Source: Bryobacterales bacterium (GTDB taxonomy: Bacteria; Acidobacteriota; Terriglobia; Bryobacterales; UBA6623). From it: a stretch of 64,000 nucleotides of DNA. Made by a program: the position numbers and the translations under genes. A model generated the notes under the pieces. The model was given only the letters and a program-made list of their open reading frames with translations, was not told where the DNA came from and searched no databases. The stretch covers positions 2,038,515 to 2,102,514 of the forward strand of contig CBDDCL010000015.1 of assembly GCA_965226245.1 (NCBI GenBank). The letters run 5' to 3'. Positions 69 through 52,745 of this stretch are shown here, piece by piece. Numbering within the stretch: the first letter of the stretch is position 1; every line of letters starts with the position of its first letter.

Positions 69-869
69 CTACGCCGTTTGTCGCTGCCGCAATCCATGGA
101 AAAGACAGTACGTAGCGACGGCCGCAATGAGGTGTTTTAACGTGTGGCCGCTCCAAAATCCGGTAAGAACATAGATTTGGACGTCGCACAACTCGCACAT
201 CTTGGCCACGGCATACAGAGCCCACATAAGGACAAATTGGCGAGCCTGCCCGTGACGAGGTGGAAACATGCAAACGATGAACGGGACGACGATCACCGGA
301 TAGAATTGAACAAGCAAGTACAAACGGACGTCTCCTTCGCCCGCCAGCTCGGTCCAGTGCCAGTGCAAAACGCTGTAGAGTCCCAGCAGGACCATCGGCG
401 CTAAGATAAGCTTCCCGGCGCGGTCGCTGACAAACTCGATGACGACAATTGCAAAGAACGATGTCAGCAGAAGGCTAAAGACAAGGCGGTCCCACACCAG
501 CGTGCCGTTATTCGGGTTGGCATGATAATAGGCCGAGCCGAAGCAGGTGAGGAACTCTCCGAAGAAAAACACAAAGTACGCCATGGGCGCCCCAAAATCG
601 GCGAAGGCTTTCGAAGGGACTTTCTGCCTTAACAGCCACCAGCAGCCCAGGGCGCCGATCACCGCGAATGGCGCGTTCGACACCACATTCCACATGTGCG
701 GAACGTCCAGCATGCGCCTCTGGTCGGCAAAGTCGTGGTACTCCAGAGGCTGCGAAAAGGGCGGAGTCAGGAAACCCAGCACGAGAATCGTCAGCGTCAA
801 CCCGAACAGCCCGATCAGACGCCGTCGCCTTTGTTCAGGGGTCAACTCAATCGTCATGGCAGAGTTCAT
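69..869 (-). CDS. ceramidase-like (alkaline ceramidase family) integral membrane protein
   Basis: 266-aa ORF with multiple hydrophobic helices. The N-terminal YHDFADQR...NVVSNAPF motif resembles bacterial ceramidase-domain proteins. ATGA stop/start overlap with the upstream gene at 866-869. Confidence 0.5.
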   Translation of the reverse strand: MNSAMTIELTPEQRRRRLIGLFGLTLTILVLGFLTPPFSQPLEYHDFADQRRMLDVPHMWNVVSNAPFAVIGALGCWWLLRQKVPSKAFADFGAPMAYFVFFFGEFLTCFGSAYYHANPNNGTLVWDRLVFSLLLTSFFAIVVIEFVSDRAGKLILAPMVLLGLYSVLHWHWTELAGEGDVRLYLLVQFYPVIVVPFIVCMFPPRHGQARQFVLMWALYAVAKMCELCDVQIYVLTGFWSGHTLKHLIAAVATYCLFHGLRQRQTA

Positions 870-2920
870 CGGCCCCTCTCGCGCGCCATCTCGCGAAGGC
901 GCCGGAGGTCAATCTTGCCCGTGCCAAGAGCAGGGATTGTGTCAATCAGGTAGAGATTCTCTCGCTTAGGAATGAAGAGCTTCGGCAGCTCGGACTGCGA
1001 CAGTCGATTCCAGAGCTCTTCCGGTGCAACTTCCCGATCGGTATAAAACACGACCAGACGCTCACCCCTGCGCTCATCCGGAAGAGCCGTCACGGCGCAG
1101 GGTTTTCCCGCAAGTAATTGCGTCACGACTTCCTCGATTTTGATGTGCGGAACCATTTCGCCGCCGATCTTGCTGAACCGCGACAAGCGGCCGGTGATGC
1201 GGATGAAGCCGTCATCGTCCAGCAGCGCAACGTCGCCAGTCACGTACCACCCGTCTCTCAGGACCTCCTTTGTTTTCTCAGGCTGCCCCAGGTACCCCAT
1301 CATGCGGTTGGGGCCTTTGACCAGAAGCATTCCTTCCTGATTGGGGGGCAGCACCTCGCCCGTATCTAAATTCAAAACCTTGACGGCCACGCCGGGAACC
1401 GGATGGCCGACCGTCCCCGCCTTGGACCCGGTTTGGCGCAGCCGTCCCCAGGCGACATCTGGAACGTTCACCGAAACCACCGGCGCCATCTCGGTCGTCC
1501 CATAGCCCTCCAGCAGCCTGAGATTGAACTTCTTTTCAAACGCTCTAGCCAGCGGCTCCTGCAACTTTTCGGCGCCCGCCAGTGGGAAGCGGAGAGAAGA
1601 GAACTGCTCGGGCGAACACTGCCGCAAATAGGCCGAGTAAAACGCAGGTGTCGAGATCAAGATCGTCGCCTTATACCTGGCTACCAACTCGCCGATCGTC
1701 TTCGCGTCCAAGGGATTGGCATGGTAAACGGCGCCGAAGCCCGACACGATTGGGAACCAGAGCGAGACCGTGTATCCGAAGGAGTGGAAGAAGGGCAACA
1801 CTCCCATCATGCGATCATTTTCGGTGACCCAAAATATCTGGGCGATGCTCTCGATGTTGGAAAGGACATTGTGGTGGGAGAGCATCACGCCTTTGGGCGC
1901 GCCTGTGCTTCCGCTGGAAAAAATCACAGTCGCAAGGGAGCTCGGATCACGCTGTTCCCAGCTGTAGATCATCCGAAGCAACGCTGCAGGCAGCAGGAAG
2001 GCCGCGATCGCGGTGCGGGCTTTCTGGAATGGGGTAATCCGCTTCATCACTCGTTCGACAAAGACCATCCCTTCCATGCGGGGCACTCGCGCCTTCTTTA
2101 GGAACCTCAGCGAAGTGAAGATGGTCTTGATGCCACACTGTTGTACTGCTGAGCGCATGGTTTCCTCTCCAACCGTAAAGTTGAGGTTCACCGGAACTTT
2201 TCCGGCTAGCATGACAGCAATGTTGGCGAGGGCGCCGCCCAGCGAGGAGGGAAACAACAGCCCCACCATGGATTCGTGCAGGCACTGTTTTCGAATCAGG
2301 CGCGAGAGCGCCAAGGTGCCGGCCAGCGCTTGTCCGTAAGTGAGTTCCGTGCCACTCGAGTCGGCCATGCAGAAGGAAAACCAGCGGCGCTTGGCCGTCC
2401 TAAGGAACCGCAGATGTAACAAATCTCCCGCATGCCGGCGGTATTCCACCGCGGTAGTCCCGAGCTCCATAACCGCCCTGCGCACTTCGTGCGCCTTGGC
2501 GGCCGAGGGCATGGGCTTCCCAAACGACACCGTCACTGGATACGGAACCCGCCTGGGCCATTTCCAGAGCCACCGGCCGTCTTTGAAGCTGAAGATGCTG
2601 CCCCAAATCCCATCCAGGTGAACGGGAATAACCGGCACGTCCAGTCCATTGATGATCCGTTCAAAACCGCGCTTGAAGGGAAGCAGATGCCCAGTGCGGC
2701 TAACCGCGCCTTCGGCAAAGATGCAAACCACGTGCCCTTGGCGAAGCTCTTTCCGGGCGCGCTCCAATGACTCCGCCACCTTGGCTCGGTCCCCTCCCTG
2801 AACCGGAATCGCGTTCATCAATCGAAAGATCCAATGAAACGCCTTCATCTCGTAGTAAGGCCGGTAGACCATGAAACGGATAAAGCGCTGGACACAAGCT
2901 CCCACCAACAAACCGTCCAC
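866..2920 (-). CDS. C-terminal fragment of an interrupted MFS-acyltransferase-AAS fusion: PlsC-type acyltransferase (from the D of HX4D onward, FAEG block) plus AMP-binding acyl-ACP/CoA synthetase
   Basis: The ORF starts at GTG inside the HX4D motif (VDGLLVG). It carries the AMP-binding signature SSGSTGAPKG and GYGTTE. In-frame native codons continue up to 2935, where the mobile element begins. Confidence 0.85.
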   Translation of the reverse strand: MDGLLVGACVQRFIRFMVYRPYYEMKAFHWIFRLMNAIPVQGGDRAKVAESLERARKELRQGHVVCIFAEGAVSRTGHLLPFKRGFERIINGLDVPVIPVHLDGIWGSIFSFKDGRWLWKWPRRVPYPVTVSFGKPMPSAAKAHEVRRAVMELGTTAVEYRRHAGDLLHLRFLRTAKRRWFSFCMADSSGTELTYGQALAGTLALSRLIRKQCLHESMVGLLFPSSLGGALANIAVMLAGKVPVNLNFTVGEETMRSAVQQCGIKTIFTSLRFLKKARVPRMEGMVFVERVMKRITPFQKARTAIAAFLLPAALLRMIYSWEQRDPSSLATVIFSSGSTGAPKGVMLSHHNVLSNIESIAQIFWVTENDRMMGVLPFFHSFGYTVSLWFPIVSGFGAVYHANPLDAKTIGELVARYKATILISTPAFYSAYLRQCSPEQFSSLRFPLAGAEKLQEPLARAFEKKFNLRLLEGYGTTEMAPVVSVNVPDVAWGRLRQTGSKAGTVGHPVPGVAVKVLNLDTGEVLPPNQEGMLLVKGPNRMMGYLGQPEKTKEVLRDGWYVTGDVALLDDDGFIRITGRLSRFSKIGGEMVPHIKIEEVVTQLLAGKPCAVTALPDERRGERLVVFYTDREVAPEELWNRLSQSELPKLFIPKRENLYLIDTIPALGTGKIDLRRLREMARERGR

Positions 2921-2935
2921 CGAAGAAAGATGGTT

Positions 2936-3467
2936 CCTGAATTATGCATTGCGGGGTGCACCTGAGGAGGGCTGAGCCGCAAGGGACCATTGGGGAACGC
3001 CCGAAAACATGGGGTAAAAAGGTAGGCTGGCAAAGATTCCAGCTTCACCAGCCAACCCAAAGGAGGTCACCCAAATGGTTACCAAGCGAAAACAGCATAG
3101 CTCCCAAAGGGCCGTCAAACAAGGCCCAGCCGTGACGGTCTCGCAGCCCAATAAAATCGGGGCATCCACGCCTTGACAACTTCCGCGGCAGGAAGCCGAC
3201 TCCCTACGGCGGCTTGCCGCCGGTAGTCGAGAGGGCGTTGATCTGAGAGCCTGGCTATGCGCTATGCATAAAATTTTATGCACTGGCCGCAACGTACTGG
3301 AAACACGCCACTTCGGAGCGGGGTTTTGCCGACGCGGATTCTGGGCGGGAGGGGAAACCGGGGACGGAGAAGCCAAAAGACCAGTTGCCGAGCTCCCACC
3401 TTACGACGGCCGTCAAGCCGCTACGAACGCAGCCGCACTCGCAAAGCGAATCTGTGCATAATTCAGG
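2936..3467 (+). mobile_element. 532-bp non-autonomous TIR element (MITE-like), copy 1
   Basis: Termini CCTGAATTATGCA / TGCATAATTCAGG form a 13-bp TIR. Perfect 5-bp direct repeats TGGTT lie at 2931-2935 and 3468-3472. Removing the element plus one repeat restores an in-frame NHLSSVD motif. A ~90% identical inverted copy lies at 5992-6521. Confidence 0.85.
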
Positions 3468-4801
3468 TGGTTGCAGACCAGCAACGCCGGGCCGCGAAAC
3501 GGTACGTGCTCCTGCCCGACGATGCGAACCTTGTAGACCGTATGTGTGAACAGCCATAGGACGAATCGAATCAGGAAGTCGGGCAAGACCTTGAGCACGT
3601 ACACCGTCGACAGTAGGGTGAAGATTCCGCAGATCAGGATGATCCGGTCCGGCGGCGTGTCGAGCACGTCTCGAAGAACCCAGCTCACCAGTGAGGCCAA
3701 CAAGATCGCCCCGTTGGTCAGGAAACTCTTGGCCGCCAGTATCCGGCCCCTCTCTTGGCGGCCGCTACGCTGTTGCAGGAAGGCTTCCAGGGGCACGATA
3801 AAGAACCCGGCCGAGAATCCCAGCAAGGCCATCGCTCCCGCCGCAAGGTTGTAGGACTGGCCCGAGAAGGCTAGCAAGAGCGCAAATCCGCCCATGCCGA
3901 CCGCGCCTAGTGGTACCAGACCGAGTTCCACCTTGTCGCCCGACAGCCGCCCGCCGATCACACTGCCCATCCCGATTCCAACAGCGAGAAACGTTAGCAG
4001 GATGCTAATTCCCAGTTCATCCACCGCCAAGAGCTCTGTGCCAAAAAGAAGAATTGCGATTTGGAGGACCCCCCCTAGAAACCAGAAGTAGGATATGCCC
4101 ATTACCGTCAGCCATAGCCGCTTGTCGCCGTAAAGACGCCGCACGCCCTGGATGACTTCGGCCCAGGGGTTGAGTTGAAAGGGTTTCTGTGAGCCTGAAG
4201 GCGGGACCCGGGATATGCCCAGGCTGGCGATAAGACCGGCAACGGCGATGGCAATCAGAATCAGACCAATCACCCACAGAATCTGATTCCAAGCGGAGAA
4301 CATCAGTCCGCCGACCGAAGTTCCTAGAATGATGCCCAGAAAAGTCGTCATACTCACCAGGCCATTGCCCCGAGAGAGGTCTCTGTCGGGCAGCATTTCG
4401 GGCAAGATGCCGTACTTAGCAGGGCTGAAAAACGTGGACTGCAGCGCCATCAAGAACAGCACCCCCAGCATCGCTTCCACTCGTTGTGAAAAGAAGGCAA
4501 GCAAGGCCAGGCTCATCGCCACAATCTCGAAAGCTGCCGTGCAGATTAGGACCTTTCGCTTGCTAAAAACATCGGCTATATGGCCGGCGTAGCCCGAAAA
4601 CAGGAAGAAAGGCAGGATGAATACCGCCTGTCCCAGAGAAAGGTACTTGCTAGCCCCCGCCGCGCTAAGGGCGACACTGACGGCGAACAGCGAAACAATC
4701 ATCTTGTAGAGATTGTCATTCAGCGCCCCGAGGAACTGGGCCCACAGGAAAAACCGAAAACCGCCGGATTTCAAGAGATCCTTGTATTTCCCAACGCTCA
4801 C
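3413..4801 (-). CDS. N-terminal fragment of the interrupted fusion: MFS lysophospholipid transporter (LplT-like) plus the first residues of the acyltransferase domain
   Basis: About 12 predicted TM helices typical of MFS, ending ...GPALLVCNH. The native sequence ends at 3468. The last ~17 codons (LNYAQIRF...) are read out of the inserted element. Confidence 0.8.
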   Translation of the reverse strand: MSVGKYKDLLKSGGFRFFLWAQFLGALNDNLYKMIVSLFAVSVALSAAGASKYLSLGQAVFILPFFLFSGYAGHIADVFSKRKVLICTAAFEIVAMSLALLAFFSQRVEAMLGVLFLMALQSTFFSPAKYGILPEMLPDRDLSRGNGLVSMTTFLGIILGTSVGGLMFSAWNQILWVIGLILIAIAVAGLIASLGISRVPPSGSQKPFQLNPWAEVIQGVRRLYGDKRLWLTVMGISYFWFLGGVLQIAILLFGTELLAVDELGISILLTFLAVGIGMGSVIGGRLSGDKVELGLVPLGAVGMGGFALLLAFSGQSYNLAAGAMALLGFSAGFFIVPLEAFLQQRSGRQERGRILAAKSFLTNGAILLASLVSWVLRDVLDTPPDRIILICGIFTLLSTVYVLKVLPDFLIRFVLWLFTHTVYKVRIVGQEHVPFRGPALLVCNHLNYAQIRFASAAAFVAA

Positions 4802-5065: not shown

Positions 5066-5991
5066 TTAGCCATTCAGCTCCGCCAGCATCCGCCGGACCG
5101 AAGATTCCAGCGACATCGTAACCTCCTGAAGCGCCCCTCGCTTGTCGGCCCGATATCGAGGGAGGTGAGCCGCGACGTTTAGCGGCTCCCCGATTTTCAC
5201 GATTGCCTTCCGTGGGCCCCAGCTGGGTCTTCGCTCGAACACTTCCCACTCCAGCATCCCCAGCAAGTCCAAAAACCTTTCGGCGGTCGGTGACTCTCGA
5301 ACGTAACCGTCATGCACCACGATGAAGCGCAGCACTTGCCGAAGATCCTCATAGAGCCCCTGCGCCTGCTTCTGGCGCCGTTCATTTAATTGCTGTTCAT
5401 AATCAGAACTCCCGATGTCGCTGAAGACGATCCGATCGACCATGTTGAACAGGAAACGGATGCGGTCGAGCAGGGGCTGCCCGCGGCGCGGGGAGACGCC
5501 AAGCTCCGTTTCGATCCGGGAGACAATCAACTCCTTCATGAACTGGACCCGCTGGTTCAAGTCCGCGTCCTTGCCTGGAAGGACGTTGTATTTCTTCTCG
5601 ATAGCGCTGAGTACAGCTTCACCGACCCGGCGAAGGCGGTCGTAGAGACTGAGCGGCCGCGGATTCGGGCCGACCAGTTTGTGTTCGAGCTTTTGTAGGG
5701 AACGGTCAATTGTGGGATCCATGTCCCGAAGGTATACGAACTTGATTGCCATCGGCACAAAGTAGAGCGGCAGCGCCTCACCTCGCTTGGTCAAATCCTC
5801 GCACGCCCAAAATGCAAACTGCGCTACTCCTTGCTGGAAAGGCATCAGGGTGTCGTTCTGCCCGCAGACCTCGCCTTCAGGGAAGATGACCAGCCACCGC
5901 TTGCCTTCCACAAGAATCTTGTGGGTCATGCGGAAAGACTTTCTATCCGCGGTGCCCCGCACAATCGAATAGGCTCCCAGCCGCTGTATCA
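5066..5991 (-). pseudogene. C-terminal fragment of a GPAT/PlsB-like glycerolipid acyltransferase
   Basis: The native frame starts ...IQRLGAYSIVRG (block II-like) and contains IFPEGE (block III). The N-terminal 47 codons of ORF 5066..6133 come from the inserted element. Confidence 0.75.
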
Positions 5992-6521
5992 CCTGAATTA
6001 TGCACAGATTCACTTTGCGAGTGTGGCTGCGTTCGTAGCGGGTTGGCGGTCGTCGTGAGGTGGTAGCTCGGCAACTGGCCTTTTGGCTTCTCCGTCCCCG
6101 GGTTCCTTTCCCGCCCAGAATCCGCGTCGTCAAAACCTCGCTCGGAAGTGACGTGTTTCCAGTGCGTTACGGCTAGTGCATAAAATTTTATGCATAGCGC
6201 ATAGCCAGCCTCTCAGATCAGCGCCCTCCCGACCACCGGCAGCAAGCCGCCGTAGGGAGTCGGCTTCCTGCCGCGGAAGTGGTAAGGCGTCGAAGCCCCG
6301 ATTTTATTGGGCCGCGAGGCCGTCACGGCTGGGCCTTGTTGGACGGGCCTTTGGGAGCTATGCTGTTTTCGTCTGGTAACCATGTGGGTGACCTCCTTGG
6401 GGTTGGCTGGCGAAGCTGGGATCTTTGCCAGCCTACCTTTTTACCCCATGTTTTCGGGGGTCCCAAATGGTCTCTTGCGGCTCAGCCCTCCTCAGGTCCA
6501 CGCCGCAGTGCATAATTTAGG
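5992..6521 (-). mobile_element. 530-bp non-autonomous TIR element (MITE-like), copy 2, inverted relative to copy 1
   Basis: Same termini as copy 1 (CCTGAATTATGCA / TGCATAATTTAGG). Perfect 5-bp direct repeats TATCA lie at 5987-5991 and 6522-6526. Excision restores ...ALGLLIQRLGAY... Confidence 0.85.
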
Positions 6522-6968
6522 TATCAACAAACCTAGGGCGGGCCGTCGCTCAAAAGCCTCCTTGGCCGCAACATAGTTGAACTCCTGGCTCAGCAGCTTG
6601 GAAAGGTGAAAGAGGATGTAGGGCTCTACCAACGCGCCGTGGCTAGGCGTCAGGACCACCCGAAGTCTCTTAAGATCCCTCAGACGCCGCAGGTCCGCTT
6701 CGGTCACTTCCACTTTCACGATCTTGAAAGCTAAGCGCAGCGCAAGCGGCAGCACTACCTTTGCAAGCCCGCTAAGGAGCCGGTTGTTCTTAGGGGGGCG
6801 GAAGGTGAAGGGCTTCTGCCTGGACCCTGTGTAACTGACAGCCACGCTTACGGGGCCCAGCAGAACCGCCATGCTATGCAGTACGGCCTGTTGAACGTCG
6901 AAAAAGTGAGCCCAGGGAAACCATCGAACGCCCAAAAGAAGAAGTTCGCTGGACTGCTCGATGACCAT
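6522..6968 (-). pseudogene. N-terminal fragment of the same GPAT/PlsB-like acyltransferase
   Basis: Contains an HX4-acidic block (TPSHGALVEP) and NYVAAKEAF...PALGLLI. ORF 6492..6968 reads on into the element. Confidence 0.7.
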
Positions 6969-7204: not shown

Positions 7205-8131
7205 TTACTCGTTGAAAGCGCCAGGCCGGTCGGCGGAGGCAATGAGCTCGCTGAGGCTGGCAAAGCGGGCCCCGCCCGTCTCAGGAACCGCGTCGAGGAA
7301 GGCAACGAAACCAAGTTCGGGGCTTTCTCCTTCGTGCTCCGCGGCGAATTTGCGTATGATCTCGATGGCCGGCAAGGTGTCGCGCCCCATGACCTTCACC
7401 AGGGGAAAGTGGAGCAGACCCTCGTAGGATCGGTAGATCACCTCCGTGCAGACCAGCTTGTCGGAACTGAAGAAATCGAACTCGAAGTCGTAGGGCTTTC
7501 CCTCGTGACTGAACGCGCGTACGATCGCTTCCGCAATCCGTTGCTGGGGCAAACGAGGACGCAGTACAGCCACGTAGTCCGCCTGCATCGAGTGTTCGAG
7601 GCTGTTGAAGATGACCCCCTCGCTTACGGCCTCGATGACTGTCTTCGGCCAGCCGTGGGCATCCGTCTGGCGCCATTCCGACAGCCGCGCGCGGACCGCG
7701 GACTCGTCGAGAATCCCCAGGCGAGCCAAGTCCGCCTCTCGCCCGATGTATAAGGCCGCGTGCGGCCAGAAGCCGGGCAGGAAGGCGTTGGACAGATACC
7801 AGTTTCGACGCTCCAGCAGAATATCCCCAGGTTCGAGCAGCTCTTCCATCTCTTCGATCTGGGTGACGCTGATGAACGGCGGCCGATTGACGATTTTGGC
7901 GTCACCAATCCACTCGGACACGAGAGACTGCACGGCAAATACGGGCTTGTAGGCGTCGCTCCTCACACGCTCGCGGAGCCGGGCGAGACTGCTCCTGTCC
8001 TGGCTGGCCTGATGACTGCGCACGTACCCGGCCGCCTCGACGATACGGCCCTCGAGCCAATCGAAGTCCTCCTTGGGCCAGACTTCGGCGCTGCGCCACT
8101 CCGGGCCCTTCTCTTCGAAGTAATGAGCGAG
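7205..8131 (-). pseudogene. C-terminal fragment of a membrane-anchored YiiX-like permuted papain-fold (NlpC/P60-type) protein
   Basis: Shows the PGDILLER...WPHAALYIG and KLVCTEVIY motifs. The frame is continuous with 9160..10340 once the IS and one TSD copy are removed (..KCEELAHYFEEKGPEW..). Confidence 0.6.
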
Positions 8132-9158
8132 ATGGGGTATTTAGTTGACTCCAGTAGCCACTACATCTTGGGGGTGGGGGTGCCGGCCCTGGTGGCCTCG
8201 ACCATTGTCTTATAGGGAGCAGGGTCGGCGGCGACCGCCTGCTGGAGGAGGCGATAGAAAAGTTTGCCGCGCGACCGTGAGGTCCGCCGGTTGAAGCGGA
8301 ACGTGAACTCGTCCAGGTAGTAGTCCAAATACTCGTGACTGACAGCCCCCTGGTGGGTCCCCAACAGCCAGCGCTTTAGCAGAGAGGCGACACGATGGAC
8401 TCTCGGCAGCAGCTTACTCGCCGATTGCCGCTTCCCGCGCAGCACGGTGACTTCATGGCGGTATCCTTTGTTCTCCAATCCCGCATAGCCTTCCCAGCCG
8501 TCGGTGTGCACGAGGCTGCCAGGTTGGATAGCTTCTTCGACAAAGGCTTCCAAGCTCGCCGCTGAGGCATCCGCGATCCGACGGAGCCGGATGCGACCCA
8601 TACCGCGCCCATCCTCCTCGGCAGCAACCGCAACTAACGCTTTGCCAACCATTTCGCGACCTCGGACGCCCTCTTCGACTCCGCCCACATACGTTTCGTC
8701 CACCTCCACCCGGCCGACCAGCCGATTGCGACCGGGGCGCACCATGGCGCGGCGGAACTTGTGCAGCCAGGTCCAGGCGGTTACATAGCTACCCAAACCC
8801 AAGACCCGCTGCAACTCCAGCGCGCTGGCCCCGCCTTTTTGCGTTGTCACCCACCAAGCCGCCCGGAACCACAACGTCAAGGGCTTGCGGGTGTCCTGGA
8901 AAATCGTGCCCGCCGTCACCGAGGCCTGGTAACCGCAGTCGGCGCAGAGCAGCAGATTGCGTTTGCTGGCCCATGAGGACTGGATCCCACAGCGCGGGCA
9001 CACGAACCCCTCCGGCCAGCGCAGCTTCAGCAGGTACTCCCGGCACGCCTCCTCGGTCGAGAATCGAGCTTCCAACTCGACGAGGTTTCGGGGGTAGTCC
9101 TCCTTCATGCCCCCAACCACAACATATTGTGGCTACTGGAGTCAACTAAATACCCCAT
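8132..9158 (-). mobile_element. IS1595-family insertion sequence, full copy 1 (1027 bp)
   Basis: 30-bp TIR ATGGGGTATTTAGTTGACTCCAGTAGCCAC at both ends. Flanking TGAGCGAG lies at 8124-8131 and 9160-9167, with one extra T at 9159. Contains a single transposase ORF. Confidence 0.9.
8161..9120 (-). CDS. IS1595-family (ISXO2-like) DDE transposase with N-terminal zinc ribbon
   Basis: 319 aa. Has FVCPRCG...CADCGYQ zinc ribbon and a DETYVGG catalytic block. Identical to 51748..52707. Confidence 0.9.
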   Translation of the reverse strand: MVGGMKEDYPRNLVELEARFSTEEACREYLLKLRWPEGFVCPRCGIQSSWASKRNLLLCADCGYQASVTAGTIFQDTRKPLTLWFRAAWWVTTQKGGASALELQRVLGLGSYVTAWTWLHKFRRAMVRPGRNRLVGRVEVDETYVGGVEEGVRGREMVGKALVAVAAEEDGRGMGRIRLRRIADASAASLEAFVEEAIQPGSLVHTDGWEGYAGLENKGYRHEVTVLRGKRQSASKLLPRVHRVASLLKRWLLGTHQGAVSHEYLDYYLDEFTFRFNRRTSRSRGKLFYRLLQQAVAADPAPYKTMVEATRAGTPTPKM

Positions 9159-9159
9159 T

Positions 9160-17932: not shown

Positions 17933-18571
17933 CTAGCTGGCTCGCTCCAAACCCCTGGCAAGCCGCAGCGCGAGCGGCGTGAGATAGTTTTGAGCAATCC
18001 ATCGAATCACTGGGACACACACAGCATCACCGAACCCGAAGAGACCCTGATTGGAACGGCCAGGAATCACATAGTCGTCGGAAACGCCTTGAAGGCGAGC
18101 ATATTCCCGCGGAGTCATGTAGCGGGCGCGAATCGATCCGCGACCCGCGACGACGAGAATCTGTCTGCTGCTTCCTCCTCTGGGTGTTCGCAAGCAGCCG
18201 GCGACGCCGTCGTCCCTTACTTCGGCCGTGCTGACTCCGTTTCGCATCCTTCGGTAGACCGTGGCGTGGAAAGCCTTCGCTGACGCCCTGCGGCTCTCGA
18301 CCCGCCCAAGATGCGCCTCATTCATTTGGCTCAGCAGCTTCTTCACGCGGTCGCCGGACCACCAAGCCGGATCGTTCTTTGGCAGGGTCTCGACTACGTC
18401 TGATAGGGAACCTACGATGGCTGGAAGCGACGGCAGGGACTTGATCGACCACTTAAGATCGGTATTGCGCAGAATCGCGCTGGCCAACGCCTGAGACCTG
18501 TGGCTCCCCTCGGAAAACAAAACGTTCTCCGAAAACGGAGGCATGAGGCTGAATCGATCGAGAGCCCCCAT
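17933..18571 (-). CDS. C5 cytosine DNA methyltransferase, C-terminal piece (variable region plus motifs IX-X)
   Basis: RYMTPREYARLQG and GFGDAVCVPV motifs. A potential ATG at 18571 is created at the IS/host junction and gives MGALDRFSLMPPF... Confidence 0.7.
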   Translation of the reverse strand: MGALDRFSLMPPFSENVLFSEGSHRSQALASAILRNTDLKWSIKSLPSLPAIVGSLSDVVETLPKNDPAWWSGDRVKKLLSQMNEAHLGRVESRRASAKAFHATVYRRMRNGVSTAEVRDDGVAGCLRTPRGGSSRQILVVAGRGSIRARYMTPREYARLQGVSDDYVIPGRSNQGLFGFGDAVCVPVIRWIAQNYLTPLALRLARGLERAS

Positions 18572-19139
18572 GGTGCGCCCCGGTCGCAATAGTCGAAGAG
18601 GGCGTCCGAGGTCGCGAAATGGTTGGCAAAGCGTTAGTTGCGGTTGCTGCCGAGGAGGATGGGCGCGGTATGGGTCGCATCCGGCTCCGTCGGATCGCGG
18701 ATGCCTCAGCGGCGAGCTTGGAAGCCTTTGTCGAAGAAGCTATCCAACCTGGCAGCCTCGTGCACACCGACGGCTGGGAAGGCTATGCGGGATTGGAGAA
18801 CAAAGGATACCGCCATGAAGTCACCGTGCTGCGCGGGAAGCGGCAATCGGCGAGTAAGCTGCTGCCGAGAGTCCATCGTGTCGCCTCTCTGCTAAAGCGC
18901 TGGCTGTTGGGGACCCACCAGGGGGCTGTCAGTCACGAGTATTTGGACTACTACCTGGACGAGTTCACGTTCCGCTTCAACCGGCGGACCTCACGGTCGC
19001 GCGGCAAACTTTTCTATCGCCTCCTCCAGCAGGCGGTCGCCGCCGACCCTGCTCCCTATAAGACAATGGTCGAGGCCACCAGGGCCGGCACCCCCACCCC
19101 CAAGATGTAGTGGCTACTGGAGTCAACTAAATACCCCAT
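18570..19139 (+). mobile_element. truncated IS1595-family copy (3' ~570 bp, with ~47-bp internal deletion)
   Basis: Encodes the last 163 aa of the transposase, identical to the full copies. It ends with the TIR ...GTGGCTACTGGAGTCAACTAAATACCCCAT. The DETYVGG segment is deleted. Flanked by a ~102/105-bp host duplication (18465-18569 and 19141-19242). Confidence 0.9.
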
Positions 19140-19739
19140 CTTGCGCAGAATCGCGCTGGCCAACGCCTGAGACCTGTTCCCCTCGGAAAACAAAACGTTC
19201 TCCGAAAACGGAGGCATGAGGCTGAATCGATCGAGAGCCCCCACAATGAACAATCGAACGCGGCTTTGAGGCACAAAGTAACTGGCATCGATAAGGAAGG
19301 GATCACAACGGTAGCCGAGGCGGTTTAGCTCCTGAACAGCCGCGCGAAAATCAGCGCCTTTGCGCGAGGTTAAGAATCCAGGTACGTTCTCGATCAGTAC
19401 CAGAGGAGGCCGCTTTTCTCCCATCGATTCGAGCACGTGCGCAAAACCCCAAAAGGACCGGGATTCTGAACCGCTCAGTCCTTCTCTTGCACCAGCCAAA
19501 GAAAGGTCAGTGCAAGGGAAACCTGCTGTTGCCAGAAGCGCTGAAGGAACTTGCGCCGCATGGAGTTCGCCAACGTCGCCCACGACGTAGTCGCCGGCAG
19601 GGAAGTTAGCGGCGTAAGTGATCCGCTTTGACCCGTCGATGTCATTCGCAAAAAGACACTGCCAATCTTCACGTTCAAGCGCCCAGCGAATGAGGCCGAT
19701 GCCTGCAAAGAACTCGAGGAATGTCTTCTGGAGTATCAT
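19140..19739 (-). CDS. C5 cytosine DNA methyltransferase, N-terminal piece (motifs I-VIII)
   Basis: FAGIGL (motif I), GFPCTDLS (IV), ENVPG (VI), QSRVRLFIVG (VIII). The tail of ORF 19056..19739 is IS-derived. Confidence 0.85.
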
Positions 19740-21371: not shown

Positions 21372-21779
21372 ACAGGCCCGCCGAACTGTAAGCCGGTTTC
21401 TGTACCCCGGCCGAGGCCGGGGTGGCAGCCATTCGTCTAGGTCCGCCATTGCTGGCGGACTCGAGCAACCTACCCGGAACTTCGGCTGCCGGGGGAAGCC
21501 GAACAGCCGTGGGCGCGGCGGGTCACCGCTCGTTCCCTATTTGGTCTTGCTCCGCGTGGGGTTTACCCTGCCACCCCGGTTGCCCGAGGCGCGGTGCGCT
21601 CTTACCGCACCTTTTCACCCTTACCCCGGCGCTCGCCGGGGCGGTACGTTTTCTGTGGCACTTTCCGTGAACTACCCTTTGAGAGTAGCCCCCCGGCCGT
21701 TAGCCGGCACGCTGCCCTGTGGAGACCGGACTTTCCTCCCCGCCATCATGGCGCGGCGGCTGCCCGTTCGGCGGACCCA
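21372..21779 (-). ncRNA. rnpB: RNase P RNA, bacterial type A
   Basis: The minus strand carries GGAGGAAAGUCCGG (reverse complement of 21726-21739), GGUAAGGGUGAAAAGGUGCGGUAAGAGCGCACC and a 3' ACAGAAACCGGCUUACAG. P1 pairs 21766-21777 with 21375-21386. Confidence 0.9.
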
Positions 21780-30504: not shown

Positions 30505-30564
30505 GAAGAGTTCTCCCTCGCTGAGGGGATCGGCTGCTTGCGGAGGTTTCATTAGTACCGGCAT

Positions 30565-30698
30565 CATGAAATTCGCCACAAACGTGGCACAAAATTCAGG
30601 AGCCGACTCGGAGCCCCGACCGTGAGGGAGGGGTTAGCCGCTACGACGCGCCTCATCCGCCAGCGGCCACGCTCCCCTCTCTGGTTGCGGCTCGTCGG
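30565..30698 (+). repeat. dispersed ~95-140-nt hairpin repeat, copy A
   Basis: Core GGAGCCCCGACCGTGAGGGAGGGGTTAGCCGC...CGCTCCCCTCT(C/T)TGGTTGCGGCTCGTC. Also found at 44037, 47136 and 51256. Confidence 0.85.
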
Positions 30699-30906
30699 CA
30701 TTAGGGAGGCCGGGGCCGGCGTGCGGAGTTTTTCCCCAGATTCAGGCCCACGACAAACGGTCCGCCACCTGTGACTCTCACTCCCGCGGCGGGCGGCTGT
30801 TGCACACCTCGACGCCCGCCTCGCCCAGGGCGCCCATCGCTGCATACAATACAGACAGACTCAAGACCCGCTGCACGGATTCCCCAACCCAGCCCAGAAG
30901 CCTCCG

Positions 30907-43880: not shown

Positions 43881-44036
43881 TCCTGCATTGCCTGCTAACT
43901 GACTGTGTTGAATTTACGGCGGATTACGAACTCGGTCCGAATGACCCTTCTCATGTTACCAGACGGCTCCGAGCAGCCCCGCTGCCACGAGGCCTGAAAC
44001 GCAGCGCACACGATGACAATCCAGTAGCAGCTGCAT

Positions 44037-44175
44037 CATGAAATTCGCGCCAAACGTGGCAGAAAATTCGGGAGCCAGACTCGGAGCCCCGACCGTGAGG
44101 GAGGGGTTAGCCGCTTCGACGCACCTCATCCGGCAGCGGCTGCGCTCCCCTCTTTGGTTGCGTCTCGTCCGCGTC
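44037..44175 (+). repeat. dispersed hairpin repeat, copy B
   Basis: Same 5' module (CATGAAATTCGCGCCAAACGTGGCAGAAAATTCGGGAGCC) and core as copies A and C. Confidence 0.85.
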
Positions 44176-44271
44176 AGCTATACGGGAAGCCGCGCGCGGT
44201 TGTCGCACACCTGAAAGCGCCGGCCCTGTCGAGGAGAAACCCGCTTCGCTGGGCGCCAAGCGGCCAGGACG

Positions 44272-45830: not shown

Positions 45831-47130
45831 ATGACGCCCCCGGAAACAGATCGTCGTCTGACCCGCCTCGAAGAAGAAAACAGACGCCTGCGCCGCGCTG
45901 TCGACGAACTGTCCATCATCAACGAAGTCGCTTCCGCCGTCACCTCGACCTGGTCGCTGGATGAAATCGTCAACTCCATCGTGCAGAAATGCGTGAAGCA
46001 TTTGAACGTTGAGCAGGGCGCCGTGCTGCTGTTTGACAAACAGGAGGACTCGGCGGAGCTAAAGACGATGGTCCGTCGCGTGGACTCCAGCGTCGGGGCA
46101 ATCCCCTATCGGCTGGGAGACCAGTTGGGCGGCTGGATGTTGAAGAACCAAGCGCCTCTTCTCATCGACGATCTGGCCGCCGACGAGCGCTTCCGCATCA
46201 ATGAGGAAGTGGATAGCGCCATCCGCTCCCTCATGTGTGTTCCTGAGGCTGAAGAACCGCATGATTGGTGTTCTGATCGTCTTTAACAAGCGATCACGAG
46301 AGGCTTTCACCGAAAGCAATCAGCGCCTGCTCACGATCATTGCCGCCCAGTCCGCGCAGGTGATCGAAAACGCCCGTCTTTACGAAGAAGAGAAAGCGCT
46401 GCAGCGCATGCAGCAAGAGATGGAGATGGCGCGCAGCATTCAGGCCAACCTGCTGCCCAAGGCGCAGCCGTCGATTCCCGGCTATGACATTGCGGGGATG
46501 TCAGTTTCGGCCGCCAACGTCGGCGGCGACTACTTTGACTTCTTGCCATCCGGGGACCGGCTGATTCTCTGCCTGGGAGATGTTTCCGGCAAGGGCATGC
46601 CTGCTTCCCTGCTGATGGCGAATGTGCAGGCAACCATTCGCGGCCAAAATCTGGTCAGCTCATCGGCCGCCGAATCCATGAGCCGCTCCAATCGGCTGCT
46701 GTTTCAAAGCACGGACTCAGCGAAGTTCGTGACTTTCTTCTACGGCATCTTGGACATAGCTGGGAGAACACTCGATTATTCCAACGCCGGCCACAACCCG
46801 CCGATCCTGTTTTCAGACGGTCAAGAGGCCCAGCGTCTGGAAATCGGAGGGCCCGTCCTCGGCGTACTCCCTGATTTTCCCTACCAGCAGGCTACAGTTG
46901 CGCTGAATCCTGGTGACTTGCTTCTGATTTTTTCCGACGGGTTCTCCGAGGCAATGAATCGCCGCCTCGAAGAATTCGGAGAAGACCAGCTCGTAACACT
47001 TGCCGCCCGCAATCGCGGCGATGCGGCGGCGGACCTGATCGAGAAAATCTCCCAGGCCGTGGTCGCTCACACAGGGGATGAGCCTCAAACCGATGACATG
47101 ACGATCATCGCTGTCCGAGTGGACGCCTGA
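45831..47130 (+). pseudogene. GAF domain - PP2C/SpoIIE-type phosphatase (RsbU-like), frameshifted
   Basis: ORFs 45831..46286 and 46201..47130 are consecutive parts of one protein (..IRSLMCV | LRLKNRMIGVLIVFNKR..). The frame changes at ~46242. The PP2C part has GGDYFDF and GDVSGKG. Confidence 0.8.
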
Positions 47131-47135
47131 GGGTG

Positions 47136-47260
47136 CATGAAAATTCGCGCCAAACGTGGCAGAAAATTCGAGAGCCGCTCGGAGCCCCGACCGTGAGGGA
47201 GGGGTTAGCCGCTACGACGCGCCTCATCCCGCTCCCCTCTTTGGTTGCGGCTCGTCCGCG
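47136..47260 (+). repeat. dispersed hairpin repeat, copy C (loop shortened)
   Basis: Same modules as copies A and B. Confidence 0.85.
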
Positions 47261-47266
47261 GAGGGG

Positions 47267-48208
47267 ATGCAACAACCCTTGGCGTCCTCGCGTCTAACGA
47301 AGGAACAACATGCTGAAGGTTCCGGAGGAATCCTTTTGACCCGATCGATCAGGCAGCGGCGCTTTTGGCTGTCAGGCAGCGTCCAATCGTCCCTTACGCC
47401 ATGGATCGCCGCGGCTGGGGTCCTATCCGTTCTCGTTTTCATGGCTCCGGAAAACTTGGCGGCCCAAAGCCGTCAGGAGAAAGCACGCCAGTTGCTGGAC
47501 CAATGCCTGGAAGCAGTCGGGGGAGAGGCCTTTCTCAAAATCAAGACGTTGAAGCAAACCGGACGAGCCTACTCTTTCTACCGGAAAAGCCTGCGGGGGC
47601 TCGCCGTAATCACCATCTTCAACGAATACGGTCCGCTCGAGGAAAATGAGGACCCCGAGTGGCTGCCCGTCAGCCGCCGTGAAATCTATACGCAAAAGGG
47701 CGACTACTACACCCTGTTTCGGAACGGAAAAGGGTGGGAGATCACCTACCTTGGCGCGCGGCCCCTGCCGGAAGACACGCTTCAGCGATATCGTATCTCT
47801 ACCCGCCGCGACATCTTTCACATCTTGCGATACAGGCTCGACGAGCCTGGCATGTATTTTTACTACTCCGGCACCGAGATTGTCAGCAATGTTCCAACCC
47901 ATGCCGTCGAGATCACCGACAGCGAGAACGAGACAGTTACGGTCTATCTGAGAATGTCAGACAATTTGCCTGTCCAGCAGGTCTACCTCCGGCGCGACCC
48001 CAAGACGCGCATCCCCTACGAAGAGAAGTCAATCTACTCGAAGTACCGAAAAGTCGGGGCCCTGACGATACCGTGGAACGTTCAACATGTACGCGACGAA
48101 GAAAGAATCTTCGAGTTGTTCGGCCGCACGGCCGAGATCAACGGCAAAGTGCCCGGGGATACTTTTCGGCTCAAGAACGGCATGAAGGTTCTCCCGCCGG
48201 ACTACTAG
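47267..48208 (+). CDS. hypothetical secreted protein
   Basis: Hydrophobic signal-like segment followed by a soluble domain. The start is placed after the repeat, at ATG 47267. Confidence 0.5.
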   Translation: MQQPLASSRLTKEQHAEGSGGILLTRSIRQRRFWLSGSVQSSLTPWIAAAGVLSVLVFMAPENLAAQSRQEKARQLLDQCLEAVGGEAFLKIKTLKQTGRAYSFYRKSLRGLAVITIFNEYGPLEENEDPEWLPVSRREIYTQKGDYYTLFRNGKGWEITYLGARPLPEDTLQRYRISTRRDIFHILRYRLDEPGMYFYYSGTEIVSNVPTHAVEITDSENETVTVYLRMSDNLPVQQVYLRRDPKTRIPYEEKSIYSKYRKVGALTIPWNVQHVRDEERIFELFGRTAEINGKVPGDTFRLKNGMKVLPPDY

Positions 48209-50866: not shown

Positions 50867-51256
50867 ATGGCCAACTACATGATTGCCCAGCTCGACGAAA
50901 TCGAAGCGGTCGAGTGTCCTTGCGGTGAAGCGCGGCGGGCCTTCGCGGCTCCCGATAACGACGTCGCCACGCTGCACGTCGTGGACATCAAAACCGATTC
51001 TGAGGTCCACTACCACAAGAAGATGACGGAGATCTATCTGGTCCTCGAAGGCGAGGGCCATATGGAACTCGACGGCGAACTCATTCCCGTCAAGCCCCTC
51101 ACCTCGATCTTCATCAAGCCCGGCTGCCGTCACAGAGCCGTTGGCAAGATGAGAATCGTGAACATACCGATTCCCGCATTTGATCCCGCCGACGAGTGGT
51201 TTGATGAGGAGCCGGTAACGCAGGTTGAATCCAAACCAGTTGCGGCAGGCGACTAG
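50867..51256 (+). CDS. cupin domain protein
   Basis: HYHKKMTEIYLVLEGEG...GCRHRA cupin motifs. GGGGAGG RBS upstream of ATG 50867. Confidence 0.7.
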   Translation: MANYMIAQLDEIEAVECPCGEARRAFAAPDNDVATLHVVDIKTDSEVHYHKKMTEIYLVLEGEGHMELDGELIPVKPLTSIFIKPGCRHRAVGKMRIVNIPIPAFDPADEWFDEEPVTQVESKPVAAGD

Positions 51257-51350
51257 GAGCCCCGACCGTGAGGGAGGGGTTAGCCGCTTCGACGCGCCTC
51301 ATCCGACAGCTGCCACGCTCCCCTCTTTGGTTGCGGCTCGTCCGCGTCAG
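51256..51350 (+). repeat. dispersed hairpin repeat, copy D (core only)
   Basis: GGAGCCCCGACCGTGAGGGAGGGGTTAGCCGCTTCGACGCGCCTCATCC...CGCTCCCCTCTTTGGTTGCGGCTCGTCCGCGTCAG. Confidence 0.85.
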
Positions 51351-51367
51351 GCGGTGAGAAAAGCCGG

Positions 51368-51718
51368 CTACGTCTCGTCCCCTCGAACCATTTGCTCCAG
51401 CGCAATCTTCGGGCAGATCTGGTTGTGAATGTAATCAATCAGGGAGGTCCCTACCCGGCGGATTCTTCTTTCGATACGCTCGTCGAGGCAATTTCCCGCT
51501 TCATCGAACACTTTGTGAACGTTCGGAACCGAAGCCGGTCCCGGCAGCACGATGGCCCCTACATGGGAGCAGACACTGCGCAGATGTTCGAGCGATTTGA
51601 TGGCGCCAATGGCCCCCGCGGCTACTCCCAGCAGCGCCACGGGCTTTCCGCTCAATACCGACGGGTATCCCAATTGCTCGATGAACAGTTTGATCACGCT
51701 GCTGTAGCTTCCATGGTA
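51368..51718 (-). pseudogene. NADPH-dependent FMN reductase, C-terminal fragment
   Basis: Continues ..PEYHG|SYSSVIKLFIEQLGYP.. from 52746..53008 once the IS and one TSD copy are removed. Confidence 0.8.
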
Positions 51719-52745
51719 ATGGGGTATTTAGTTGACTCCAGTAGCCACTACATCTTGGGGGTGGGGGTGCCGGCCCTGGTGGCCTCGACCATTGTCTTAT
51801 AGGGAGCAGGGTCGGCGGCGACCGCCTGCTGGAGGAGGCGATAGAAAAGTTTGCCGCGCGACCGTGAGGTCCGCCGGTTGAAGCGGAACGTGAACTCGTC
51901 CAGGTAGTAGTCCAAATACTCGTGACTGACAGCCCCCTGGTGGGTCCCCAACAGCCAGCGCTTTAGCAGAGAGGCGACACGATGGACTCTCGGCAGCAGC
52001 TTACTCGCCGATTGCCGCTTCCCGCGCAGCACGGTGACTTCATGGCGGTATCCTTTGTTCTCCAATCCCGCATAGCCTTCCCAGCCGTCGGTGTGCACGA
52101 GGCTGCCAGGTTGGATAGCTTCTTCGACAAAGGCTTCCAAGCTCGCCGCTGAGGCATCCGCGATCCGACGGAGCCGGATGCGACCCATACCGCGCCCATC
52201 CTCCTCGGCAGCAACCGCAACTAACGCTTTGCCAACCATTTCGCGACCTCGGACGCCCTCTTCGACTCCGCCCACATACGTTTCGTCCACCTCCACCCGG
52301 CCGACCAGCCGATTGCGACCGGGGCGCACCATGGCGCGGCGGAACTTGTGCAGCCAGGTCCAGGCGGTTACATAGCTACCCAAACCCAAGACCCGCTGCA
52401 ACTCCAGCGCGCTGGCCCCGCCTTTTTGCGTTGTCACCCACCAAGCCGCCCGGAACCACAACGTCAAGGGCTTGCGGGTGTCCTGGAAAATCGTGCCCGC
52501 CGTCACCGAGGCCTGGTAACCGCAGTCGGCGCAGAGCAGCAGATTGCGTTTGCTGGCCCATGAGGACTGGATCCCACAGCGCGGGCACACGAACCCCTCC
52601 GGCCAGCGCAGCTTCAGCAGGTACTCCCGGCACGCCTCCTCGGTCGAGAATCGAGCTTCCAACTCGACGAGGTTTCGGGGGTAGTCCTCCTTCATGCCCC
52701 CAACCACAACATATTGTGGCTACTGGAGTCAACTAAATACCCCAT
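51719..52745 (-). mobile_element. IS1595-family insertion sequence, full copy 2 (1027 bp)
   Basis: Same 30-bp TIRs. Perfect 8-bp TSD CCATGGTA at 51711-51718 and 52746-52753. Confidence 0.95.
51748..52707 (-). CDS. IS1595-family DDE transposase
   Basis: 319 aa, identical to 8161..9120. Confidence 0.9.
   Translation of the reverse strand: MVGGMKEDYPRNLVELEARFSTEEACREYLLKLRWPEGFVCPRCGIQSSWASKRNLLLCADCGYQASVTAGTIFQDTRKPLTLWFRAAWWVTTQKGGASALELQRVLGLGSYVTAWTWLHKFRRAMVRPGRNRLVGRVEVDETYVGGVEEGVRGREMVGKALVAVAAEEDGRGMGRIRLRRIADASAASLEAFVEEAIQPGSLVHTDGWEGYAGLENKGYRHEVTVLRGKRQSASKLLPRVHRVASLLKRWLLGTHQGAVSHEYLDYYLDEFTFRFNRRTSRSRGKLFYRLLQQAVAADPAPYKTMVEATRAGTPTPKM

Follow-up and report, generated by a model that had tools for sequence, protein, structure and literature searches.

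Two copies of a miniature element, very probably derived from an IS1380-family insertion sequence, interrupt adjacent acyltransferase genes in a Bryobacterales bacterium

Introduction

What kind of DNA splits a lipid acyltransferase gene in the middle of its catalytic motif, and where did it come from? The question is raised by a 64,000-nucleotide stretch of a Bryobacterales genome (assembly GCA_965226245.1, contig CBDDCL010000015.1, positions 2,038,515 to 2,102,514 of the forward strand; hereafter the window), in which 532 bp at positions 2936-3467 lie inside a gene for a fused major facilitator superfamily (MFS) transporter, acyltransferase and acyl-acyl carrier protein (acyl-ACP) synthetase. 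A sequence-only reading of the window had described the segment as a non-autonomous transposon with inverted termini and a 5-bp target-site duplication, had placed its autonomous partner outside the window and could match it to no element family. The analysis that we present here supplies that family. The segment is very probably a miniature transposable element with inverted repeats (MITE) that originated by an in-frame internal deletion of an IS1380-family insertion sequence (IS) of about 1.8 kb and that was moved in trans by the transposase of that IS.

Anatomy of the element and its second copy

The element (copy A, 532 bp, positions 2936..3467, plus strand) carries a remnant of a transposase gene that reads from left to right. 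It is delimited by 13-bp terminal inverted repeats (TIRs), the left one being CCTGAATTATGCA (2936..2948, plus strand), a sequence that stands unchanged at the left of the IS1380-family elements of 1.8 kb described below, and the right one TGCATAATTCAGG (3455..3467, minus strand), the exact reverse complement of CCTGAATTATGCA. Immediately outside the TIRs are the left and right copies of a perfect 5-bp direct repeat, TGGTT (2931..2935 and 3468..3472), which is present only once in the contigs of close relatives. Termini and repeats are thus as the sequence-only reading had given them for 2931-3472, in coordinates and in sequence.

To establish what lies between the TIRs, both copies found in the window were aligned with both ends of two full-length IS elements. 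In the short element, ~290 nt from the start of the IS, comprising the left repeat, the 139-nt leader in which AAGGAGG lies and ~47 codons, are followed by its last ~245 nt, made up of nine codons, the stop, a 3' untranslated region with TGCATAAAATTTTATGCA and the right repeat. In copy A, the remnant of the IS 5' untranslated region occupies 2949..3074 (plus strand) and includes a Shine-Dalgarno sequence AAGGAGG (3060-3066, plus strand); the left arm to which it belongs is 86-89% identical to the sampled IS copies. The start of the transposase gene follows (3075..3176, plus strand), with an ATG at 3075, 33 codons and a TGA at 3174-3176. The junction of the internal deletion, GCTTGCCGCCGGT (3212..3224, plus strand), is a short stretch of similarity at which approximately codon 47 is joined to the last 9 codons of the transposase. 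Just past the position of the transposase stop there is a perfect 18-bp palindrome, TGCATAAAATTTTATGCA (3265..3282), that comes from the 3' untranslated region of the IS and is also found in the full-length IS copies of two other loci (L016 and L043; such numbers are our labels for loci).

The sequence-only reading had counted a single element, and its copy A stands; a repeat search showed that it had overlooked a second, inverted copy (copy B, 530 bp, 5992..6521, minus strand). Copy B belongs to the main subfamily defined below, its left end reads CCTAAATTATGCA, and it is flanked by a perfect 5-bp duplication, TATCA on the plus strand (left copy 5987..5991, right copy 6522..6526). It is ~92% identical to copy A across 530 bp, its TIRs match at 12 of 13 positions (the match is perfect over 13 bp in copy A), and it keeps a transposase remnant as a 56-codon mini-ORF (open reading frame; 6213..6383, minus strand). 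Termini of the CCTGAATTATGCA type number four in all in the window, namely those of the two short copies, so the full-length partner is not inside it, as the sequence-only reading had supposed.

Empty sites in sister genomes

Exact-protein look-ups of the neighbouring genes led to two sister contigs, ena:ERZ28763718:ctg125699 (7.19 Mb) and ena:ERZ21829562:ctg257534l (0.97 Mb), whose DNA is 99.9-100% identical to the window on the flanks of both insertions. The sites of copy A and copy B are empty there, with the genes intact and each 5-bp repeat present once. The empty sites that the sequence-only reading had asked for therefore exist at both positions, and the insertions are real, recent and at the level of DNA. 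Elsewhere in the window, the ~57 kb comparable with the sisters showed no further MITE difference; all that differed were IS1595 elements.

The effect on the first gene is that foreseen by the sequence-only reading. When copy A and one TGGTT are deleted in silico, ORF 3413..4801 joins in frame with ORF 866..2920 to give a stop-free protein of 1132 aa that reads ..ALLVCNHLSSVDGLLVG.. over the junction, with Pfam domains MFS_1 (21-369), Acyltransferase (424-549) and AMP-binding (635-992). The intact sister orthologue (loci L002 and L003) is assigned to NCBIfam NF006386, acyl-[ACP]--phospholipid O-acyltransferase, at 1372 bits (cutoff 1221). Likewise, removal of copy B restores a 455-aa protein with a Pfam Acyltransferase domain, whose gene (5066..6968, minus strand) is intact in L001, L002 and L003.

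The autonomous partner and its family

Long elements of 1800-1809 bp were found in the same loci as the short ones, with identical termini, 5-bp repeats and one ORF of 481 aa. The protein, which starts MVTKRKQHSS..., was recognised by NCBIfam NF033539, IS1380 family transposase (250-251 bits, cutoff 180), and by Pfam PF13701 at 1e-55, and it is 28.7% identical to the transposase of ISEcp1 over 88% of its length (tblastn, E = 3e-29). Elements of this kind are present in the sister genome. One member of the transposase cluster, P0138, is encoded at least five times on ctg125699, with an identical transposase each time, and once on ctg257534l, the contig bearing the empty sites. At most P0138 sites the element is 1799-1800 bp long with ends CCTGAATTATGCAC...GTGCATAATTCAGG; the right terminus was not detected at one of them (L108). 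Several of the sister IS elements are bordered by perfect 5-bp repeats (TGGAA, TAGAA, TGTTA). The long partner with the same termini, predicted to lie outside the window, has in this way been located together with its transposase.

The ends of ISEcp1, read from plasmid NZ_OR689867.1, are CCTAGATTCTACGT and CCTAAATTCCACGT, and the termini described here (CCTGAATTATGCA and CCTAAATTATGCA) start with CCT.AATT, as do CCTAGATT and CCTAAATT of ISEcp1. Members of the IS1380 family are about 1.5-2 kb long, have a single ORF and make target duplications of 4-5 bp. The ~1.8-kb partner, also with one ORF, resembles ISEcp1, IS1247 and ISPme1 in its size and ORF, and it shares its 5-bp duplication with IS1247, a family member of 1672 bp that makes a 5-bp repeat (PMC3281130). 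An assignment to the IS1380 family agrees with all of these: the size, the one ORF, the length of the duplication, the CC at the start of the termini and the match to the transposase model.

Target choice

Short and long elements have a target consensus in common, TNNNA, with T at position 1 in 99-100% of cases and A at position 5 in 96%. The duplication of copy B is TGATA in the orientation of the element and fits this consensus. A 3-bp duplication next to 14-bp termini (A...T) was considered as another way of reading these ends and was rejected: the exceptions to the consensus (TGGTT, AGTAA and TTCCT) are identical on both sides of their elements, and an unusual base that recurs at either side speaks for a true duplication of 5 bp and against one of 3 bp.

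Distribution and population structure

A stop-free translation of the element was compared with one genome per species of bacteria and archaea, which gave 304 related stretches; further copies, another point on which the sequence-only reading could have failed, are thus plentiful. We catalogued the copies in 80 of these 304 loci plus the window. All 80 are in assemblies of Bryobacterales (Acidobacteriota), with the exception of one in a chromosome labelled Nitrospira. The catalogue holds 77 unique short copies of 529-536 bp, and 69 of them have perfect 5-bp repeats, which agrees with a non-autonomous, MITE-like element with a 5-bp target-site duplication.

The copies of the main family, copy B included, have a median pairwise identity of 98.5%, and copy B reaches 98.9% identity with copies of another Bryobacterales genome. 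Copy A represents a divergent subfamily, none of the other catalogued copies exceeding 92.6% identity to it. The JGI metagenomes gave no exact match to a 24-mer that is specific to it, and a scan of the same metagenomes with the pseudo-ORF gave 16 distant relatives, all within the left-arm part of the query, and no match spanning both arms. As these scans returned no closer relative, the copy A subfamily stays a singleton. With copy A an outlier and copy B a member of the main family, two diverged subfamilies have both moved recently in the window strain. In the sister genomes there is also a 98-nt fragment (L106, 4089-4186; L112, 3930-4027) that corresponds to the final 98 nt of the MITE's right arm, with 94.9% identity to copy A and 92.9% to copy B; this hints that right arms of the copy A type are present in the sister genome.

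Between species, identity among copies (98.5-99.2%) is as high as it is within a genome (98.7-98.9%), and no flank was common to different genomes among the sampled copies, i.e., no orthologous insertion sites were found. For the 80 of 304 loci that were sampled, this pattern fits a recent amplification that took place independently in each genome, starting from master copies of nearly the same sequence.

Elements of this family often lie nested or side by side. One MITE is located inside a full-length IS (L041, 4241-6582), an IS and a MITE are only 8 bp apart in another locus (L084, 3308-5652), two MITEs are separated by 5 bp (L030, 4369-5439), and four MITEs are found within 3 kb (L083, 4904-7859). 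Such arrangements suggest insertion near or into existing copies.

The copy in the Nitrospira-labelled chromosome (OZ252033.1, 'MAG: Nitrospira sp.', chromosome 1; L052, 4910-5439) belongs to the main family, being 98.5-99% identical to Bryobacterales copies, with TGTCA and TGACA as its repeats. The ORF into which it is inserted resembles, by eye only, a TonB-dependent-receptor gene, and an adjoining ORF has an N-terminus resembling, again by eye only, another IS1380-type transposase. Either a cross-phylum transfer or a chimeric or mislabelled assembly would account for this copy.

Coding content

Pfam found nothing in the four longest ORFs of the element, and the transposase remnant of copy A amounts to only 33 codons, so the absence of a convincing ORF noted from sequence alone holds. 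Most copies keep more of the transposase: a 56-codon in-frame remnant, composed of residues 1-47 of the transposase plus the last nine, is preserved behind a good ribosome-binding site in 66 of the 77 catalogued copies (the stop after 33 codons in copy A cuts it short). A selected regulatory mini-protein encoded by this ORF with its strong Shine-Dalgarno sequence was considered and rejected. Its variant states are 3 synonymous versus 16 non-synonymous, and their density (11 per 100 nt) is that of the non-coding parts (10-13 per 100 nt), so there is no evidence of a selected peptide. The 26 bases of the two terminal repeats show one variant state only.

Origin of the element and alternative explanations

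The most probable history starts with a ~1.8-kb IS1380-family IS, from which an in-frame internal deletion of ~1.27 kb would have left the short element. Both TIRs of 13-14 bp, the 139-nt 5' leader, the first ~47 and last 9 codons and the 3' untranslated region would have been kept. The 481-aa DDE transposase from full-length copies elsewhere in the same genome would then bind the ends of the short element in trans and insert it at TNNNA-like targets by a 5-bp staggered cut, producing the 5-bp duplication. In the window strain, two diverged copies would have been inserted recently in this way into two adjacent genes.

Several observations weigh against this history or leave parts of it less secure than the rest. 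Mobilisation in trans is deduced from the identical termini, the length of the duplication and the TNNNA consensus, and it should be read as a proposal drawn from sequence. The right arm of the MITE, excepting its last ~20 nt, is only ~68-71% identical to the sampled full-length IS, a divergence that places the exact parental IS variant outside the sample. Source copies of A and B, expected to be at least ~99% identical, are not among the sampled sequences, a sample to which the window's own genome does not belong; exact-protein look-ups of three ORFs internal to the element gave no identical source copies on record. Perfect repeats are wanting at 8 of the 77 short copies and at 13 of 36 long pairs, some of which may be mispaired ends or rearranged copies. 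Finally, the TGGTT duplicated by copy A departs from TNNNA at position 5, as a rare exception.

The position of the element precisely within a conserved catalytic motif could also suggest a structured RNA or something akin to an intron, for instance of group I or II, whose splicing out of the acyltransferase mRNA would leave the host gene functional, and as RNA the element does fold better than shuffled sequence (z = -4.1). The terminal repeats and the internal palindrome, from which a low folding energy is expected, account for this, and covariation analysis has no power on main-family copies that are ~98.5% identical. No Rfam family was matched at gathering thresholds, and relaxing the limit to an E of 10 added chance-level hits only. 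Considering in addition that introns do not make inverted termini and target duplications, that the copies occupy many unrelated sites without a shared flank between genomes, and that the element is collinear with both ends of an IS that codes for a DDE transposase, we regard splicing as extremely improbable. Just as little credence can be given to a MITE of another family with 5-bp duplications, be it a Tn3-derived inverted-repeat miniature element (TIME) or one descended from the IS1595 elements of the window. TIMEs are likewise non-autonomous and make 5- or 6-bp duplications (PMC4133298), and IS1595 copies are active in this lineage. However, the termini and both arms match an IS1380-family element, the partner is of IS1380 type and not of Tn3 type, the IS1595 ends read ATGGGGTATTTAGTTGACTCC... 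(the sequence-only reading had rightly set the two kinds of termini apart), and at the IS1595 site 51719-52745 the flank alignments to the sister overlap by 9 bp instead of 5.

Since the comparison genomes are metagenome assemblies, repeat sequence might have been misplaced by the assembler. We consider this highly improbable as well, if by a slightly smaller degree: the element boundaries are exact, they are accompanied by a perfect 5-bp duplication of a sequence that is single in the sisters, the same anatomy recurs at 69 of the 77 catalogued copies, and copies A and B differ by 8%, so that one is not a duplicated assembly error of the other. A further proposal is compatible with a MITE derived from an IS1380-family element and concerns the choice of sites. 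The hits in adjacent lipid-acyltransferase genes would be non-random, reflecting either selected loss of a lysophospholipid re-acylation locus or a regional preference for insertion. In its favour, subfamilies that have diverged by 8% were inserted independently 2.5 kb apart, the remaining ~57 kb show no other MITE difference from the sisters, and copies are often clustered or nested elsewhere (e.g., L083, L030, L041 and L084). On the other hand, this is one locus only, transposable elements commonly occur in clusters, which can be neutral, and a pathway that has already lost one gene may simply tolerate a second hit. The pair of insertions in adjacent related genes could come from regional preference, selection or tolerance after the first hit, and we hold a non-random origin to be possible but rather unlikely.

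Consequences for the host genes

The first disrupted gene (866..4801, minus strand) encodes the 1132-aa MFS/acyltransferase/acyl-ACP synthetase fusion, whose architecture we take to be that of the lysophospholipid transporter LplT fused to the bifunctional Aas enzyme. In the window it is split into ORFs 3413..4801 and 866..2920. The insertion point of copy A is inside the His codon of the HX4D motif, which leaves the catalytic His and Asp on separate fragments. The MFS fragment now ends ..NHLNYAQIRFASAAAFVAA, and the first in-frame start of the downstream fragment is a GTG within LSSVD. The insertion should abolish the acyltransferase activity of this LplT/PlsC/Aas-type enzyme. No sigma-70-like promoter was found by the promoter scan in or beside copy A. 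On the sense strand of the host gene, the element carries a terminator-like hairpin with a T-rich tail (3015..3053, minus strand; a consensus match only) that might be an added cause of polarity on the downstream gene fragment.

The gene for the 455-aa acyltransferase-domain protein split by copy B lies immediately upstream of the 1132-aa gene on the minus strand. Both genes would have lost their function to the insertions. For annotation, this means that the two genes of the window are to be described as pseudogenes resulting from recent insertions and not as four separate ORFs.

Comparison with known elements

Bacterial MITEs such as Nezha, Correia, RUP and Chunjie likewise share their TIRs with an autonomous IS, make target duplications, lack a transposase and occur in many copies, and filled and empty sites in close relatives, also part of the definition, are found here (PMC3184786). 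The element conforms to the known MITE concept (PMC3184786) in every respect tested and is unsurprising in kind. It differs from other MITEs in its parent family, IS1380, and in that both of its arms are still recognisable as the ends of the parent IS, including the in-frame 56-codon remnant. At 530 bp it is also larger than most bacterial MITEs (~100-300 bp). In comparison with ISEcp1, the window element is a deletion derivative without transposase, and its host is an acidobacterium of the order Bryobacterales. One-ended mobilisation of adjacent DNA, as described for ISEcp1 and ISPme1 (PMC9330008), has left no sign here.

No MITE of IS1380-family origin was found described in the literature that we searched (ISfinder was outside the search). 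A bolder reading would make this the first such MITE to be described, caught in an ongoing burst that spreads horizontally, with the hits in adjacent genes due to selection or targeting and not to chance. The burst is suggested by an identity between species as high as that within genomes, the lack of shared sites and the one Nitrospira-labelled copy. Taken as a whole, this reading is speculative, and we think it improbable.

What can be documented for the Acidobacteriota is a high-copy MITE of apparent IS1380 origin with a TNNNA preference, a defined deletion junction, and filled and empty sites in near-identical strains. How elements of the IS1380 family transpose, and whether conservatively or replicatively, has been described as unknown (PMC9330008), and an abundant, naturally polymorphic, non-autonomous derivative offers material for its study.

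Other repeats and genes in the window

The window also contains two full IS1595-family copies (8124-9159 and 51719-52745) whose presence varies among the sister strains; Pfam domains Zn_ribbon_IS1595 and DDE_Tnp_IS1595 were found on the orthologous gene in L001. The contig ctg257534l (L002) lacks the first copy (~8131-9159) and has an intact 699-aa Peptidase_C92 gene there, and the second is absent from L105, the locus in which its flank alignments show the 9-bp overlap. A 557-bp IS1595 fragment (18591-19147) is found between direct repeats at 18465-19246. The repeats measure 66 nt according to the repeat finder, and ~106 nt are duplicated with respect to the sister contig L001, which has neither the fragment nor the flanking duplication. 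It is unusual for a truncated IS to be flanked by so long a duplication.

A short, G+C-rich intergenic repeat is present in four copies (30550-30726, 44022-44199, 47122-47270 and 51251-51372), with a conserved core of ~100 nt (CTCGGAGCCCCGACCGTGAGGGAGGGGTTAGCCGC...CGCTCCCCTCTTTGGTTGCGGCTCGTCCGCG) and more copies in the sister contigs; Rfam at gathering thresholds assigned it to no family. Lastly, the minus strand at 21373-21775 codes for the bacterial RNase P RNA class A (289 bits), an ordinary housekeeping gene.

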